64,000 nt of DNA from Ostreococcus lucimarinus (taxonomy: Eukaryota): NCBI GenBank assembly GCA_000092065.1, contig CP000581.1; one strand, written 5' to 3'. Below the pieces are notes generated by a model. The model was not told the DNA's origin. It searched no databases and was given only the letters and a program-made list of their open reading frames with translations. Both the position numbers and the translations under genes were made by a program. Of this stretch, positions 50,409-58,033 are shown piece by piece (position 1 is the stretch's first letter; each line of letters starts with the position of its first letter).

Positions 50409-51584
50409 CTACGTCTCGTGCGGTTTCGGTTCCTCCCCGTCGTCCTCGTCGTCGTCGTAATCCGCTGGGTCGAACGAAATCTCGGAAACTTTCGCCTTCT
50501 TTGCCGCCGCGTCGCCGGCGTCGTCGTCGATCCCCAGTTCTCGCTTCGCCTCACGCATCAGCGCTTGAGCCTTCTCGCTGCGCAAAAACATGTCGCGAAC
50601 CTTTTCATCGTTTTCATTCGCCACGCGCACGATGGCGATCGGGTTCGGGTCATCGTTCGCCCATCGAACGTTGAGCGGCTCGGCGTCGTCGCTCGTCCAC
50701 AGCGTCTGCCCCGCCATGGCTTCCTTCGCGAACTCCGCCGAGGCGCGAAATTTATACCGAACGAACGCGAATCGCCGCTCAAACTTCACCGTCACGTCTT
50801 CGATCGGACCGAACTCGCTGAACTGCGCCATCACCTCGTCGTACACCTTCTTCGCGCCCCACTTTGGATCCACGGCGCCGCCGAAGAACATGTACAGCGT
50901 TCGCCCGACGCGCATGTACGACCCCGTCCCTCCGTTATCGTCCCGCTCCGTGTGATGCTTCGGCCGCCCAAATATATCAAACATCATGTGATTCTTCGCG
51001 TCGTCGAACGCCGTGGGCAACCGATGCAAGTACTCGCACGCCTCGCCGCTCGTGCAGCACCCGCGCGCAAAGTGATAGCACACCGCCGTCGTCCCCGCGC
51101 CGTCTCCTTTCGTCACCCCAGCGTCCAAAATCGGCGCGCACCGCGTCACCGCTTTCACTGCCGAGTTAAAATCTCGCGCCGTCGTCCCCGATGACGTCGC
51201 GTGTTTCCCCCACCACACGTTAAAATCTCCCTTCGCCGCGTCGCTGCGGTGCCGAATCCTCGGCCCCGTCTCGGGGTCGTACTGCACTCGCGCCTTTCGC
51301 GACCGACTCACGCGTTCGCCCTCCTTGGTCCACATCTTCATCGAGAAATCGACGCCCGCGTCCGCGTCCGGGAGTTCGAACGCCGCGCGCGCCTCCGTCG
51401 CGTCGTCGTCGCCGTCGCCGTCGGCGGTGCCTCGCGCGTCGTCGTCGTCGTCGCGGCGTCCCGACGCGCGCGCGTCGCTCGCCTCGCGCGTCGCTCGCTT
51501 CGGCGGCGGCGGTCTCGCGCCTCTGTACACCTCCACCATCGCGCGCGGCGCGCGTCGCGGTGTGCGACGCCGCGCGCGACGCAC
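50409..51584 (-). CDS. Pre-mRNA splicing factor Cwc2/RBM22-like (torus domain + CCCH zinc finger + RRM)
   Basis: VQYDPETGPR..NVWWGKH. CCCH CYHFARGCCTSGEACEYLH. RRM TLYMFFGG...FAFVRYKFRASAEFAKEAMAGQTL. Confidence 0.8.
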   Translation of the reverse strand: MRRARRRTPRRAPRAMVEVYRGARPPPPKRATREASDARASGRRDDDDDARGTADGDGDDDATEARAAFELPDADAGVDFSMKMWTKEGERVSRSRKARVQYDPETGPRIRHRSDAAKGDFNVWWGKHATSSGTTARDFNSAVKAVTRCAPILDAGVTKGDGAGTTAVCYHFARGCCTSGEACEYLHRLPTAFDDAKNHMMFDIFGRPKHHTERDDNGGTGSYMRVGRTLYMFFGGAVDPKWGAKKVYDEVMAQFSEFGPIEDVTVKFERRFAFVRYKFRASAEFAKEAMAGQTLWTSDDAEPLNVRWANDDPNPIAIVRVANENDEKVRDMFLRSEKAQALMREAKRELGIDDDAGDAAAKKAKVSEISFDPADYDDDEDDGEEPKPHET

Positions 51585-51635
51585 GACGCGGCGTCACATT
51601 TCGCCGCGCATTCGCGCGCGCCGATCGACGACGAA

Positions 51636-53405
51636 ATGCTCACGCTGCTGCGCGCGTCCAAGTCGCCCGAGGCGCGCGCGCCGCGCGGACGCGCGAACGA
51701 AGCGCAATCCACGCCCGGACCGTCCGGGAACGACGACGCGATCGACGACGACGACGGGAGCGACGCGAACGATGCGGACGCGGCGACGAAAGATGACCGT
51801 TTGGCGGGAAAACGAAACGACGGCGCCGAGGACGACGCGCGACGCACGGCGCACGTCATCGACGGCGATGGAAGGTCGTGGTCGAGACAGAACGTGCGCA
51901 CGGCGACGCTGGTGTACGATGGGGCGTGCGCGGTGCGGGTGCGGGAGGGCGAAGACGGCGCGCGAGGACGAGCGAGCGAACGGCGCGTCGACGCGCGGGT
52001 GCGCGTGATGGTCGGCCCGGGATCGGCGTCGATCGGGGAATCGGACGCGGGACGGGAGGAAGAGACGTCGAGTCAGGCGTCGAGGATGCTGCGCGTGCAC
52101 GTGTCGAGCGATGAGGATCCGTTTTTTTATCACGCGATGGAAGTGCGGGAGGAGGATTACGGGCGGTTGCGCGCGGAGCAGCGCTTGGTGGTGAACTTTG
52201 ATGAGTTCCCGCGCGCGTTGGTGCGGTTGATTCGCGCGTGCGACGGCGCGAGTGGGGTTGGGAAGAAGAAGGATGTGTATTGCGTGCTGGAGACGCCGTC
52301 TGAGTCGTCGGCGTCGACGCTTTCGATCGTGGAGACGAATGAGTTTAATCAGTTTACGCACGTGGCGCTCAAGTTTAAGCCGGCGTCGGATCGAGCGGCG
52401 AAACGTATCCTCGCGGGGCTTTTGCTGGATGCCAAGGATCGCGAGAGAGAGTTGAAACGATTTGAAACGCTCTATCGCGAGTCGCAAGACGCCCTCGAGA
52501 TCGCGCGCGCGAAATCTCTCGAGGCGCAGATGAAGTACGCCGAGTCGTCGGCGAACGGCAAGCGAGAAATCTTGGACGAACTCGAACGCTCGAGGGAGCG
52601 TTACGAGGCCGACAAGCGCGAGCTGCGCAAGCGCATCGATGATATTTCTAGCGAAAAGTCCGAGACGGAGCGCGAGAAGTTTGCGGCGCAAAATAAAGTG
52701 AGCGAGTTGGCGACCAAGCTCGGTTTGATCGAGGGCGAACTCGCGATCACCAAGCGCGAGTTGCAACGCGTGCGAGAAGAAAACGCCGCGCTCGACGCCG
52801 AAGTTCACGAGCGCGACAAGGCGCACAGCTCGCGCGCTTTGCGCGTCGAGTGGCTCGAGAAACAGCTCGAAGATAAGGAGGAAGTGATCGAATTATTAAA
52901 GTCCAGACTCGACGCGAGCGAAGAGCACAAAGTCGCCCTCGCGAGTTCGTGGGAGCAAGCGCGTCGCGCGCTCGGCAAGGCGGAGGAGCGCGTCGCGGCG
53001 AGCGCGGCGGAGATCAACAAAGGCAACGGTATCATCGAGGATTTACAAAAAGAGGTGCGCGCGGCGAAGAGCAAGACGAAGATTCAAACCGCCGTCATCA
53101 AAAGACAAGAAGCCTTGCTCGAGGAGCGTCTGTCCAGCGTCAACGTCGCCGCGGGCGAGCGCGCCGAGGCCTCCCTCGAGCAACGCGAACTCGCCGCCGC
53201 CAACGCCGCTCTGCGCGACGAAAAAGCCGCGCTCTCCCAAAAGCTCGCCGAATCCCACGCTCTGTTACAGAGCAATCAACAAGTCATCGAATGGCTCAAC
53301 GCCGAGCTCACCGACGCGACCGCGGGTCGTCCCGTCGCCGCCTTCGCGTCGTCCGCCGCCCCGCGTTCGCCCCTCATCGATCTCTCCTCCCCGAGCCCGG
53401 CCTAG
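51636..53405 (+). CDS. SAS6: Centriole cartwheel protein SAS-6 (Bld12-like)
   Basis: PISA-motif region SDEDPFFYHAMEVREEDYGRLRAEQRLVVNFDEFPRALVRLIRAC aligns with human SAS-6 [45 protein letters not shown]. A roughly 350-aa coiled coil follows. Confidence 0.8.
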   Translation: MLTLLRASKSPEARAPRGRANEAQSTPGPSGNDDAIDDDDGSDANDADAATKDDRLAGKRNDGAEDDARRTAHVIDGDGRSWSRQNVRTATLVYDGACAVRVREGEDGARGRASERRVDARVRVMVGPGSASIGESDAGREEETSSQASRMLRVHVSSDEDPFFYHAMEVREEDYGRLRAEQRLVVNFDEFPRALVRLIRACDGASGVGKKKDVYCVLETPSESSASTLSIVETNEFNQFTHVALKFKPASDRAAKRILAGLLLDAKDRERELKRFETLYRESQDALEIARAKSLEAQMKYAESSANGKREILDELERSRERYEADKRELRKRIDDISSEKSETEREKFAAQNKVSELATKLGLIEGELAITKRELQRVREENAALDAEVHERDKAHSSRALRVEWLEKQLEDKEEVIELLKSRLDASEEHKVALASSWEQARRALGKAEERVAASAAEINKGNGIIEDLQKEVRAAKSKTKIQTAVIKRQEALLEERLSSVNVAAGERAEASLEQRELAAANAALRDEKAALSQKLAESHALLQSNQQVIEWLNAELTDATAGRPVAAFASSAAPRSPLIDLSSPSPA

Positions 53406-53525
53406 GCGCCGCACCGTCGCGCGTGTATTAATCCATCTGACCCTCCTCTCCCATTTCGCGCGACTCGATCGCGTCCGCGCCTCTCCGCGCCTCGCGCGCC
53501 TCTCCCCGCGCGTCCGCGTTCGGCT

Positions 53526-53665
53526 CGATCGATCGATCGATCGATCGATTCGAACCCGCTCGTTTTGTTTCCCCTCGCCGCGCGCGCCCCACTCACGAAC
53601 GCTCGACGCGCACGCGCACCCGGTGCGTCCGTCGCGGCGACGCGACGCGACGATCGCGCGCGTCT

Positions 53666-53710
<45 letters not shown>

Positions 53711-53769
53711 AAAGGCGGCGCATCGCGAACGCGCGCGGACGCGTCGAATGCGAATGCGAATGCGAATGC
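53526..53769. repeat. Cluster of microsatellites: (CGAT)n 53526..53549, (GCGAC)7 53671..53706, (GAATGC)4 53746..53769
   Basis: Read directly from the sequence in the 700-bp spacer after SAS-6. Confidence 0.9.
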
Positions 53770-54128
53770 GCGCGCGACGACGCGCGACGGTGGAGCCGAC
53801 GCGCGGGAACGCGCGAACGCGAAGAAGCGAGGACGGTGGAGACGCGCGCGACGCGCGGGCGAGGGAGGCGCGGACGCGCGCGCGCGGGACGACATCGATG
53901 GGCGATGATGGGGGAAATTTGAATTCGAGGGCGCAAACGGCTTGTTTTTGACGGGCGACGGGGGGCGGAGGCGCGCGCGCCGCGGAACGGCGCGATCGCG
54001 GACTCGGGGAGGGGCGCGAGACGAAGGGGGGGGAGCGCGAGGCGCGGACGCGGGATTACGACTGACGGTGCTCGCGCGGACGTCCTCGGACGTCGCGACG
54101 CGTTCGTCTCGCGCAGTTTAAACCAGAC

Positions 54129-54560
54129 ATGAAACACGCCGCCAAGGTCGCCGCGAAGAAGGCGCTCACGAAGATGGATTCCCCGCTCGCGCTCGTCGCG
54201 GGCGTGACCGTCGGGATTCTTGCGCTCGGTATCGTCGTGCAAGTGTTGCTGATCGTCGCGTCCTTGTTCACGGGCAAGAGCGCTGCGGGCGAGCGACCGA
54301 AGCGCGACCGCAAGCCGACGCCGAAGGCGCTCGAAGCCGCCCCGGCGGCGCGCGCCGCCAAGAAGGCGGCCCCGGCGAAGAAGGCGTCCTCTAAGAAGGC
54401 GACTCCCACCAAGCCGTCTCCCGCCAAGAAGGCGGCCCCGGCGAAGAAGTCCTCGTCCAAGAAGTCTGCGGCCAAGCGGACGCCGGCGAAGAAGTCCTCG
54501 TCCAAGGGCCTCGCGAGCCCGCGGCGATCGTCTCGCACGCCCACCAGAAAGACCCGATAA
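54129..54560 (+). CDS. Small single-pass membrane protein with a histone-H1-like Lys/Ala/Pro-rich (AKKAAPAKK) C-terminal tail
   Basis: MKHAAKVAAKKALTKMDSPLALVAGVTVGILALGIVVQVLLIVASLF (TM), then KKAAPAKKASSKKATPTKPSPAKKAAPAKKSSSKKSAAKRTPAKK. High GC3. AT-richer 3' flank with TGTAA. Confidence 0.6.
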   Translation: MKHAAKVAAKKALTKMDSPLALVAGVTVGILALGIVVQVLLIVASLFTGKSAAGERPKRDRKPTPKALEAAPAARAAKKAAPAKKASSKKATPTKPSPAKKAAPAKKSSSKKSAAKRTPAKKSSSKGLASPRRSSRTPTRKTR

Positions 54561-54947
54561 ACGCGCATTTGTATTCCGAGGTTGGGTCCGTCTTGGTCCA
54601 TGAAATAGGACAGCGATGGGAGTTGGTTGCGCTCTTACGCGTGTAAGAGTCGAGGCGAGATTTTAAGTGGTGTAGGAGGAGTTCAAATGACGACGCGCGT
54701 TCGGGGAAAGTCGAACGCGCGTCGTCGCTGTCTGTAAATTCACCGTCGTCGTGACGCGTAGGTATCTAGAAACTTACCGCGTTTAGAATATTCACTGTTA
54801 TATCACTCACATGTTGGCGTGCACGGAGTACTCGACGAGAACGCGACGAACGAATGAGCGCGCGCGCGACGGCGCGGGGTGACACGATTTCTAAGCGTTG
54901 GATTGCAAGTGAAATTCTCGACAAGAAATGTAGTGACCGCGCCCCGT

Positions 54948-56773: not shown

Positions 56774-58033
56774 ATGGCGCGCGCGCGCGACGCGCGACGG
56801 CGCGAGGCGATGGCGACGATCGCGCGCGCGACGACGACGCGACGCGACGGCGACGACGGACGGTCGATGTGGGTGGATTGCGACCCGGGACACGACGACG
56901 CGTTCGCGCTGTACCTCGCGCTGCACGGGACGGCGGAGCGCGCGCGCGTCTTGGTCGGCGCGTCCGCGACGCACGGGAACGCGAGCGCGGGAAAGACGAC
57001 GGTGAACGCGCTGCGCGCGCTGGCGTGGATCGGCGCGCGGGCGTCGCGAGACGGGGGGGAAGAAGGGGGGCGCGGGACGCGGGACGCGCGACGCGTGGCG
57101 TTCGCGGCGGGCGCCGAGAGGCCGTTGCTTCGCGCGTCGAGCGCGTGCGAGGAGATTCACGGCGAGAGCGGGTTGGATTCGGCGAGCGCGACGGATGCGC
57201 TGGAGGAGTACGCGTGGGGAGAGGACGAGAGAGATTGGATGGGGGCGGGCGGGATCGAGGCGCTGTTTCATCCGCGCGCGAAGACGGCGGCGGAGGCGAT
57301 GTACGACGCGTTCGTGCGGCACGTCGAAACTTCGGGAAGAGGACGGCCGTTCGTCGTCGTCGCCACGGGGCCGTTGACGAACGTGGCGACGATGATTCTC
57401 GCCAAGCGTTCGCAGATTGATTTATTTCCCGACGAATGTCGACCCGTAATTTTTTGCATGGGCGGCGCCGTCGGCGACGGCAACACCGGCGCTCGAGCGG
57501 AGTTCAACATTCAGTGCGATCCCGAAGCGGCGAAAATAGTCTTCGAGAGCGGTTTGCGAGTCTACATGATACCGCTCGAGGTGACGCACACGGCGATCGT
57601 CACCCCGAGCGTTCTCGACAGCTTGACCACCGGTGGTCATTTCGACTCCGGCAAAGCGGGCGCGAGCGCGCACGCCAAGCAAATCAGATCGCTCTTGACA
57701 TTCTTCAAGGACACGTACGAGAACGTCTTCGATTTCAAGACGGGACCGCCTTTACACGACCCCTGCGCCGTGTGGGCTGCGATTAATTTTATCGAGGGCG
57801 CCACGTACGATGAATCCGAAACGGACGATAGATTTCGAGACTTGTTCGAATTCACGCACGAACGCGTCGACGTCGAGTGCGAGTCGCGACTGACGTACGG
57901 CCAAACCGTCATCGACCGCTGGGGGACGAGCGCCGAGCCGAAGAACGTGTACGTCGCGAGAAGCATGAACGTCGATCGCTTTTGGGAAGCCATGCGCGAC
58001 GCGATTCAGCACCGTTTGAGCTGGATGTCTTAG
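56774..58033 (+). CDS. Inosine-uridine preferring nucleoside hydrolase (IUNH family)
   Basis: N-terminal Ca-binding signature MWVDCDPGHDDAFAL, catalytic region, and C-terminal ..TGPPLHDPCAV.. Confidence 0.85.
   Translation: MARARDARRREAMATIARATTTRRDGDDGRSMWVDCDPGHDDAFALYLALHGTAERARVLVGASATHGNASAGKTTVNALRALAWIGARASRDGGEEGGRGTRDARRVAFAAGAERPLLRASSACEEIHGESGLDSASATDALEEYAWGEDERDWMGAGGIEALFHPRAKTAAEAMYDAFVRHVETSGRGRPFVVVATGPLTNVATMILAKRSQIDLFPDECRPVIFCMGGAVGDGNTGARAEFNIQCDPEAAKIVFESGLRVYMIPLEVTHTAIVTPSVLDSLTTGGHFDSGKAGASAHAKQIRSLLTFFKDTYENVFDFKTGPPLHDPCAVWAAINFIEGATYDESETDDRFRDLFEFTHERVDVECESRLTYGQTVIDRWGTSAEPKNVYVARSMNVDRFWEAMRDAIQHRLSWMS

Follow-up and report, generated by a model that had tools for sequence, protein, structure and literature searches.

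The window analysed here, 64,000 nucleotides of nuclear DNA (62% GC) from contig CP000581.1 of the marine picoalga Ostreococcus lucimarinus (Mamiellophyceae; assembly GCA_000092065.1), contains at 54129..54560 on the plus strand a real, transcribed and conserved small gene. The best explanation of its 143-amino-acid product is a small single-pass signal-anchor protein, with a short N-terminus on the lumenal or far side of a membrane and a disordered, polycationic C-terminal tail in the cytosol or nucleoplasm. Our best single guess at its role, tentative and made by analogy, is that of a nuclear-envelope or endoplasmic reticulum (ER) anchor that would bind nucleic acid, be regulated by phosphorylation and hold chromatin to the envelope.

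The open reading frame (ORF) is a complete coding sequence of 143 codons and a TAA stop, with an ATG start, according to both the ORF list and the sequence. Its product was found by exact-sequence look-up to be identical to XP_001415460.1 / ABO93752.1 / UniProt A4RQW6 of O. lucimarinus CCE9901, an entry labelled merely "predicted protein" (or "uncharacterized protein") in the databases, and no published description of the gene was found in the literature. The exact 143-residue sequence is present on 146 contigs and in 314 blocks of the assembly collection, Tara Oceans metagenomes among them. A sequence-only reading of the window had placed an ORF with good coding statistics here, and both its position and its coding character held exactly: GC content at third codon positions (GC3) is 0.88, compared with 0.77-0.81 in three neighbouring genes, and 26 of the 27 lysine codons are AAG. 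Nonsynonymous (dN) and synonymous (dS) divergence was estimated by the Nei-Gojobori method for pairs among four Ostreococcus lineages, giving a dS of 0.5-0.9, a dN of 0.10-0.22 and an overall dN/dS of ~0.2, and the gene is therefore under purifying selection. The ratio is 0.07-0.2 in the transmembrane region and the C-terminal motif, and some pairs show values of up to 0.5-0.8 in the juxtamembrane and repeat regions; in no pair does the dN of the former two regions (0.04-0.18) exceed that of the repeat region (0.16-0.38). The stop position is identical in all Ostreococcus lineages and all indels are whole codons. Most of the differences between lineages upstream of the invariant Met16 are at third codon positions, and an in-frame ATG is found there in each lineage, indicating that the basic N-terminal extension is translated. 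Expression, which the sequence-only reading had named as a point to check, is seen in natural populations, as the transcript-derived sequence P0025 from the MERC catalogue (assembled from 775 Tara eukaryotic metatranscriptomes; bioRxiv 10.1101/386110) spans the whole ORF.

It is scarcely credible that there is no gene here, the ORF having arisen by chance in GC-rich DNA or an antisense ORF being the real one. Long shadow ORFs are frequent at this GC content, but selection at the level given above, motif conservation, whole-codon indels, the shared stop, synteny, outgroup orthologues and metatranscriptome coverage refute this explanation. The antisense ORF at 54056..54601 on the minus strand (181 amino acids, longer than the gene and fully overlapping it) was rejected as the usual shadow ORF of high-GC DNA, because its third codon positions coincide with those of the sense frame. 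Such a shadow ORF could mislead gene callers, and a 37-amino-acid minus-strand call overlaps the gene start in four contigs (L001-L003 and L005).

The protein was divided as follows, where the outgroup is a set of related contigs described below.

54129..54182, plus strand: N-terminal flank, residues 1-18 (MKHAAKVAAKKALTKMDS), net charge +4
54183..54272, plus strand: transmembrane helix, residues 19-48 (PLALVAGVTVGILALGIVVQVLLIVASLFT), from hydropathy, the AlphaFold2 model and invariant columns
54273..54353, plus strand: juxtamembrane basic segment, residues 49-75, including RPKRDRKPTPKALEAAPA, from within-genus and cross-genus alignments
54354..54488, plus strand: repeat region, residues 76-120, made of (A/S)PAKK / SSKK units, from Tandem Repeats Finder, the natural variant P0002 and outgroup comparison
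54489..54557, plus strand: conserved C-terminal motif, residues 121-143 (KKSSSKGLASPRRSSRTPTRKTR), from alignment and dN

The single N-proximal transmembrane helix that had been read from the sequence was supported by two analyses. Kyte-Doolittle hydropathy in 19-residue windows exceeds 1.6 over residues 16-53 with a maximum of 2.76, and AlphaFold2, supplied with the family alignment, predicted a single helix at residues 18-48 (block-mean pLDDT 67-87 over residues 21-50), with everything outside it modelled as coil at a pLDDT of ~50. The helix is nearly wholly invariant within Ostreococcus, and A24, G29, L31, G34 and Q38 are invariant with the outgroup included; this conservation, with two glycines and one glutamine, suggests helix-helix packing, either in oligomerisation or against a partner protein. 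Ahead of the helix, AAK.AL(T)K-MDSP is conserved within Ostreococcus. Directly after it, RPKR[DE]RKP..KA.EAAPA is invariant within the genus and R59, R61, K62 and P63 are invariant across genera; the juxtamembrane KRDR resembles a nuclear localisation signal (NLS) and may act as one.

The tail (residues 49-143, 95 residues) is disordered in the AlphaFold2 model and has a net charge of +29, a pI of 12.0 and only 3 acidic residues. It is composed of 23% K, 23% A, 15% S, 13% P, 10.5% R and 7% T (34% K+R), and contains five S/T-P-x-K/R sites and four PAKK units. Conservation within the tail is highest in the non-repeat motifs that flank the repeats, at residues 56-73 (RPKRDRKP..KALEAAPA) and 121-143. 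The latter, KK[ST]SSK...SPRRS[ST]RTP..K, is invariant in all Ostreococcus lineages and has the lowest dN of the tail; within KKSSSKGLASPRRSSRTPTRKTR, two full sites of the cyclin-dependent kinase (CDK) type (SPRR and TPTR) flank a site of the basophilic-kinase type (RRSS), the putative kinases being assigned from consensus motifs. Tandem Repeats Finder identified a 33-bp unit in 3.2 copies at 54358-54464 and a 15-bp unit in 4.5 copies at 54439-54506, corresponding to 11-residue and 5-residue AKK units. The repeated DNA (54358-54506) encodes about residues 77-126, and the H1-like repeats thus cover ~45-50 residues, rather than the 90 or so first described. Within Ostreococcus, the copy number of the (A/S)PAKK/SSKK units varies between the two conserved tail motifs. 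A natural variant from O. lucimarinus-type ENA metagenome contigs (P0002) lacks 22 residues relative to 54375..54440 (a AKKASSKKATPTKPSPAKKAAP-type block), between two identical AAPAKK units, so that the number of repeat copies is polymorphic in the sea.

The gene lies between that for the SAS-6 centriole protein, upstream on the same strand, and the convergent gene for ATP phosphoribosyltransferase (HisG) downstream. It occupies this position in six contigs, and the synteny SAS-6 > gene < HisG is kept in four Ostreococcus lineages, in which the orthologues (P0003-P0010) share 57-82% identity and the contigs share the order SET - Torus/RRM - SAS-6 - gene - HisG(-). No paralogue was found in the window by tblastn, the only hits being compositional matches in Arg/Ala-rich frames. 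Sequence searches found no relatives outside Ostreococcus except compositional matches: a word-indexed search returned family members alone, and an exhaustive search with a HMMER family profile against 1.84 billion representative proteins added two bacterial proteins (P0034 and P0035; E 2e-4 to 5e-4) that align with the repeats only. Orthologues outside the genus were instead found by synteny, on high-GC (68-70%) Mamiellophyceae-like contigs (L013-L016) that form the outgroup. The HisG proteins of these contigs (P0040, P0057, P0041 and P0060) are 68-75% identical to that of the window, SAS-6 lies nearby on the long contigs, and each contig has a small ORF convergent to HisG on the SAS-6 strand, in the same syntenic place and orientation as the gene in the window.

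L013 7642..7941, minus strand: outgroup orthologue of 99 amino acids, MPINLDMTDPKIVAACIAIGVLLVGMIVQLVFLAGTFLKSDAPTPRKSTRARKPSSKAEDAAAVKKSPRTPKAKAPAAAADIVSPTRRSARISKTPAKK, identified by synteny
L015: outgroup orthologue of 104 amino acids, related to the L013 protein, identified by synteny
L014 7630..8091 and L016 6791..8347, minus strand: frameshifted outgroup copies in pilon-polished long-read assemblies

The frameshifts in L014 and L016 fall within or just after the transmembrane helix, and the frameshifted products are held in the database as P0253 and P0254; L013 and L015 are intact. The frameshifts are probably long-read assembly errors and not signs of pseudogenes.

Alignment of the Ostreococcus family with the outgroup sequences alone using hhalign gave a probability of 96.3% (E 1.8e-9) over the MDSP, transmembrane and juxtamembrane block, which ends at residue 71, and a second profile search that included the outgroup sequences added just those outgroup lineages. 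The genera have in common M-[DT]-[SD]-P ahead of the helix, a G-x4-G-x3-Q helix face, R.RKP after the helix, and a C-terminal motif [ILV]-[AV]-S-P-x-R-R-S-x-R-(x0-2)-T-P-x-[KR], the outgroup proteins ending in IVSPTRRSARISKTPAKK or IVSPTRRSTRARTPAKR. Their tails are 61-63 residues long, S/T-P-rich, and carry a net charge of +14 to +16. The search in relatives proposed by the sequence-only reading thus returned syntenic orthologues with a transmembrane helix and a basic tail, but not the AKKAAPAKK repeats. As the outgroup has the basic S/T-P tail without the repeats, the histone-like array is an Ostreococcus-specific expansion of an older basic tail. Judged from these alignments, the conserved core of the family is the transmembrane helix and the short basic S/T-P motifs, not the H1-like array, and the family is taxonomically restricted, being seen in Ostreococcus and at least two related lineages. 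In a further relative of ~50% GC, possibly Bathycoccus-like (L017/L018; HisG 74% identical), the SAS-6/HisG synteny is not kept and HisG has a mitochondrial-carrier gene and a SAM-domain gene as neighbours; beside HisG no candidate small ORF with a transmembrane helix and basic tail was observed, and the family may be absent or relocated in this lineage.

Searches for known families gave no assignment. None of 7 family members gave a Pfam match to Linker_histone / H15 at E<=1, no winged helix is present in the AlphaFold2 model, a phmmer search of PDB sequences with the tail gave no H1 match, a search of viral contigs gave nothing, and no metazoan match appeared in any homology search. DUF6479 (PF20087) scored 20.9 bits (E 5e-4), below its gathering threshold of 25.4 bits, through a match to the transmembrane helix and low-complexity tail. 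The names OadG, cytochrome oxidase subunit 1 and HU-beta, given automatically by JGI to members of the cluster, were rejected, with no such Pfam family found at E<=1; they are annotation noise, since the names differ between near-identical cluster members. As no family, domain or solved structure matches, function is argued here from architecture.

Topology was derived from the charges flanking the helix. By the positive-inside rule, a basic flank stays on the cytosolic side. The outgroup N-terminal flank is 10-12 residues long with a net charge of -2 and the C-terminal flank is strongly basic, which places the N-terminus outside and the tail in the cytosol or nucleoplasm (type III). For a +29 tail to cross the membrane is also much less plausible than for an 18-residue flank to do so. 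A cleavable signal peptide was rejected, the hydrophobic stretch of 28-30 residues being too long. The 10-18 residues ahead of the helix, acidic in the outgroup, leave no room for a transit peptide or presequence and so argue against the interior of the plastid or mitochondrion.

A membrane-anchored, acid-free, disordered polycation will bind polyanions, and the composition of the tail and its S/T-P-x-K sites are those of DNA-binding H1/SPKK tails. In our explanation the ancestral form, which persists in the related Mamiellophyceae-like lineages, has a transmembrane helix with the G-x4-G-x3-Q packing face, a basic S/T-P tail of ~60 residues and a terminal SP.RRS.R..TP..K, and in Ostreococcus this tail was lengthened to 90-95 residues by 33-bp and 15-bp tandem duplication, the (A/S)PAKK repeats coming to mimic the C-terminal domain (CTD) of linker histones. 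The protein would insert into the membrane system of the ER and nuclear envelope, its tail would bind nucleic acid electrostatically, and diffusion and retention would lead it to accumulate at the inner face of the nuclear envelope where DNA meets membrane, holding chromatin there. Phosphorylation of the invariant proline-directed and RRxS sites would then lower the charge and release the tail in division; the arrangement of two CDK consensus sites and an RRxS site, as read from the motifs, has the look of a cell-cycle release switch. We infer the identity of the membrane, DNA rather than RNA as the ligand, and the phosphorylation switch.

Precedent for this role comes from vertebrate and yeast proteins. 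Long basic extralumenal domains are found in 46-50% of vertebrate membrane proteins resident in the inner nuclear membrane (INM) but in 4% of those of the ER and Golgi, a ~12-fold enrichment, and they bind DNA directly, with mitotic phosphorylation modulating the affinity between membrane and chromatin (PMC2063857). Compared with this class, defined by more than 100 residues and a pI >8.5, the tail has a pI of 12.0 and 95 residues, against 90-95 residues in the other Ostreococcus lineages and 61-63 for the outgroup; its similarity to a K/A/P-rich disordered CTD with S/T-P-x-K sites is one of composition only. In yeast, the order transmembrane helix - disordered linker - NLS suffices for INM targeting (PMC4569319). 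The distal basic motif, a putative NLS, lies ~80 residues from the helix here and ~45 in the outgroup. The cellular setting is also consistent with such a tether. O. tauri is reported to be without a linker histone or H15-domain protein (PMC6080658; PMC9871001), O. lucimarinus is without the winged helix of canonical H1 (PMC5728721), and the nuclear envelope of O. tauri is open during most of the cell cycle (PMC1939878), so that lateral diffusion could bring an ER membrane protein to chromatin without passage through pores. The tether proposed by the sequence-only reading is thus upheld in the predicted exposure of the tail to the cytosol or nucleoplasm and in the resemblance to proteins with long basic extralumenal domains, while its DNA binding depends on composition; likewise, the likeness of the tail to that of linker histones holds for composition and S/T-P-x-K sites but does not extend to any H1 or Pfam match or to the repeats outside Ostreococcus. 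A bolder version, which we regard as rather doubtful, would make the ~15-kDa protein a membrane-anchored H1-tail mimic serving as a minimal chromatin-to-membrane tether in a lineage with no canonical H1, a minimal set of envelope proteins and a mostly open envelope, with CDK-/Aurora-type phosphorylation of the invariant SP-RRSS-R-TP end releasing the genome, and hence an independently evolved substitute for LBR-/LEM-type tethers.

Several observations weigh against chromatin tethering. No homology ties the tail to DNA, its similarity to H1 being compositional, and the AKKAAPAKK array that most resembles H1 is absent from the outgroup positional orthologues. The outgroup tails are well below the 100 residues of the vertebrate INM class, and the linker there is shorter than active INM import in yeast needs (53 residues failed; PMC4569319). 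In Ostreococcus the N-terminal flank carries +2 to +4, so that both flanks of the helix are basic and the sequence is ambiguous on topology in this genus; a hairpin (monotopic) arrangement may apply, with AlphaFold2 giving one continuous helix. Motifs of E2F-type cell-cycle promoters are no more frequent than background upstream of the gene, and none is conserved from one lineage to another. The supplements of three O. tauri proteome and phosphoproteome papers contain no peptides from the family, which is weak negative evidence because tryptic fragments of this tail would be very short. Disordered polycations are no less able to bind RNA, ribosomes, acidic lipids or tubulin tails than DNA. Nuclear-envelope localisation alone would not separate a chromatin tether from a ribosome or mRNA receptor, whose properties the charge and disorder of the tail also fit, and the architecture agrees equally well with that of p180/RRBP1.

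A receptor for ribosomes or mRNA in the ER or outer nuclear membrane, acting in the manner of the N-terminal region of metazoan p180/RRBP1 (with a type III anchor and a lysine-rich disordered region), is unlikely, though it is the main rival. The layout of p180 is the same: close to the lumenal N-terminus comes a single transmembrane helix, and after it a lysine-rich cytosolic region with a possible role in mRNA binding (PMC8230838). No sequence relationship to p180 was found, and the protein lacks both the decapeptide repeats and the coiled coil. The tail, rich in A/P/S/T, nearly free of acidic residues and with S/T-P-x-K sites, also appears nearer to H1/SPKK tails than to the lysine-rich region of p180, which is of mixed charge, and chromatin tethering is ranked above the p180-like role. 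Somewhat less probable again is an accessory role as a small subunit of a translocon, a transporter, the division machinery or another membrane complex, in which the helix would dock a partner, the basic S/T-P tail would serve as a regulatory phospho-tail and the repeats would be neutral low-complexity expansion. Plain membrane anchors usually drift more than this helix, which is the most conserved part of the protein (dN 0.08-0.11, against 0.16-0.38 in the repeats) and keeps five residues invariant across genera; the variable repeat number in natural populations (P0002) fits neutral expansion. The conservation of the helix is also compatible with a chromatin tether and with a p180-like receptor. 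Against such a subunit, every lineage has a tail with very few acidic residues and a net charge between +14 and +30, and the dN/dS of the repeats is still <1, so that the tail charge appears to be under selection, and no partner or family was identifiable in Pfam.

Two further possibilities concern other ligands and compartments. It is improbable that the tail acts as an electrostatic tether to the acidic phospholipids of an apposed membrane or to the one or two microtubules of the cell through their acidic tails. Ist2, the polybasic ends of STIM and microtubule-associated proteins offer analogies, and the tail is suitably long, disordered and polybasic. In O. tauri, moreover, the organelles are tightly pressed together and the nuclear envelope is touched by a single microtubule (PMC1939878). 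However, an amphipathic or hydrophobic element for insertion into lipid is missing from the tail, leaving an analogy of charge with nothing specific to it. The plastid envelope or nucleoid anchor suggested by the sequence-only reading, extended here to a mitochondrial nucleoid, is very improbable. SPKK-type tails favour AT-rich DNA, and organelle genomes are more AT-rich than the nuclear window (62% GC). The short segment before the helix, net -2 in the outgroup, is nevertheless incompatible with a transit peptide or presequence, and insertion into the outer membrane would leave the tail on the wrong side of the envelope.

The protein falls outside H1, p180, the LBR/LEM-type tethers and any Pfam family, and resembles them functionally in its combination of a membrane anchor with a polybasic disordered domain. 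The tail is like that of linker histone H1 in its disorder, its richness in K/A/P/S/T, its (A/S)PAKK units and S/T-P-x-K/R sites, and its near lack of acidic residues; the protein differs in its transmembrane helix, a feature not known from H1, in lacking a globular H15 domain and detectable homology, and in repeats that are specific to the genus, and the 34% K+R of the tail compares with roughly 40% K in animal H1 CTDs. It shares with p180/RRBP1 the single N-terminal transmembrane helix and the adjacent lysine-rich region, and perhaps also the type III orientation (PMC8230838), which the outgroup flanks support and which is ambiguous in Ostreococcus; it differs in size (143 amino acids against about 180 kDa), in the absence of the 54 decapeptide repeats and coiled coil, and in the lack of homology. 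It resembles INM proteins (the LBR N-terminus, LAP2beta, MAN1 and POM121; Ulbert et al. 2006) in its membrane anchor and long, very basic domain (PMC2063857), and POM121 in particular in having an N-terminal single transmembrane helix followed by a basic NLS region (PMC4569319), but it is not homologous to them and lacks LEM, Tudor, RS and FG domains, and its tail is 95 residues (~60 in the outgroup) rather than >100. The same AKKAAPAKK low-complexity unit is found in bacterial nucleoid proteins with AKKA/PAKK tails (P0034 and P0035; Pfam HC2), where the matches are compositional and confined to the repeat region, the domains and kingdom being unrelated. No characterised protein that joins an N-terminal transmembrane helix directly to an array of H1-CTD-like repeats was found in the literature. 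New here are the positional orthologues outside Ostreococcus and the recognition of the H1-like repeats as a genus-specific expansion, and the family offers a clean case of tandem duplication converting a short basic tail into a histone-like array of repeats.

Among free-living eukaryotes Ostreococcus is the smallest and serves as a minimal-cell model, and its chromatin has been reported as a disordered nucleosome assemblage. A conserved, ocean-abundant and uncharacterised membrane protein with an H1-CTD-like tail is a concrete candidate for keeping its chromosomes in place. If the protein does tether chromatin to the envelope, it would be a minimal tether in a eukaryote without H1 and poor in lamina; should its ligand prove to be ribosomes or mRNA, the green lineage would have an analogue of receptors hitherto regarded as specific to metazoans. 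Both readings are testable in O. tauri.

The surroundings of the gene show further features. The 724-bp intergenic region 5′ of it is 72% GC and dense in simple repeats (53474..53890), namely (GCGAC)x14.6, (TCGA)x6.2, (CGAATG)x4.3 and a 23-bp x2 unit, which give rise to many spurious Arg-rich ORFs on both strands. A short block directly 5′ of the ATG (CAGTTTAAAC, 54114..54123) is recognisable in 3 of the 4 Ostreococcus lineages (as CAGTTTGAAC and CATTTCAAAC elsewhere), the remaining upstream DNA being unalignable, and may be a core-promoter, initiator or 5′ untranslated region element. Downstream, an inosine-uridine nucleoside hydrolase gene lies beyond HisG (56774..58033, plus strand), between HisG and an ApbA/ketopantoate-reductase gene in every contig of the O. 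lucimarinus type (L001-L006). Two other lineages of Ostreococcus (L007/L008 and L009) do not have it there and carry only short unannotated ORFs instead, which points to a lineage-specific gain or loss. On the upstream side, the mechanically defined SAS-6 ORF (51201..53405, plus strand) has 734 codons from a GTG start, whereas gene calls on identical contigs give 589 amino acids from a start near 51635, and the first ~145 codons of the longer ORF, which are Arg/Ala-rich, are probably untranslated. SAS-6 itself is retained although O. tauri has been described with only one or two microtubules (PMC1939878).

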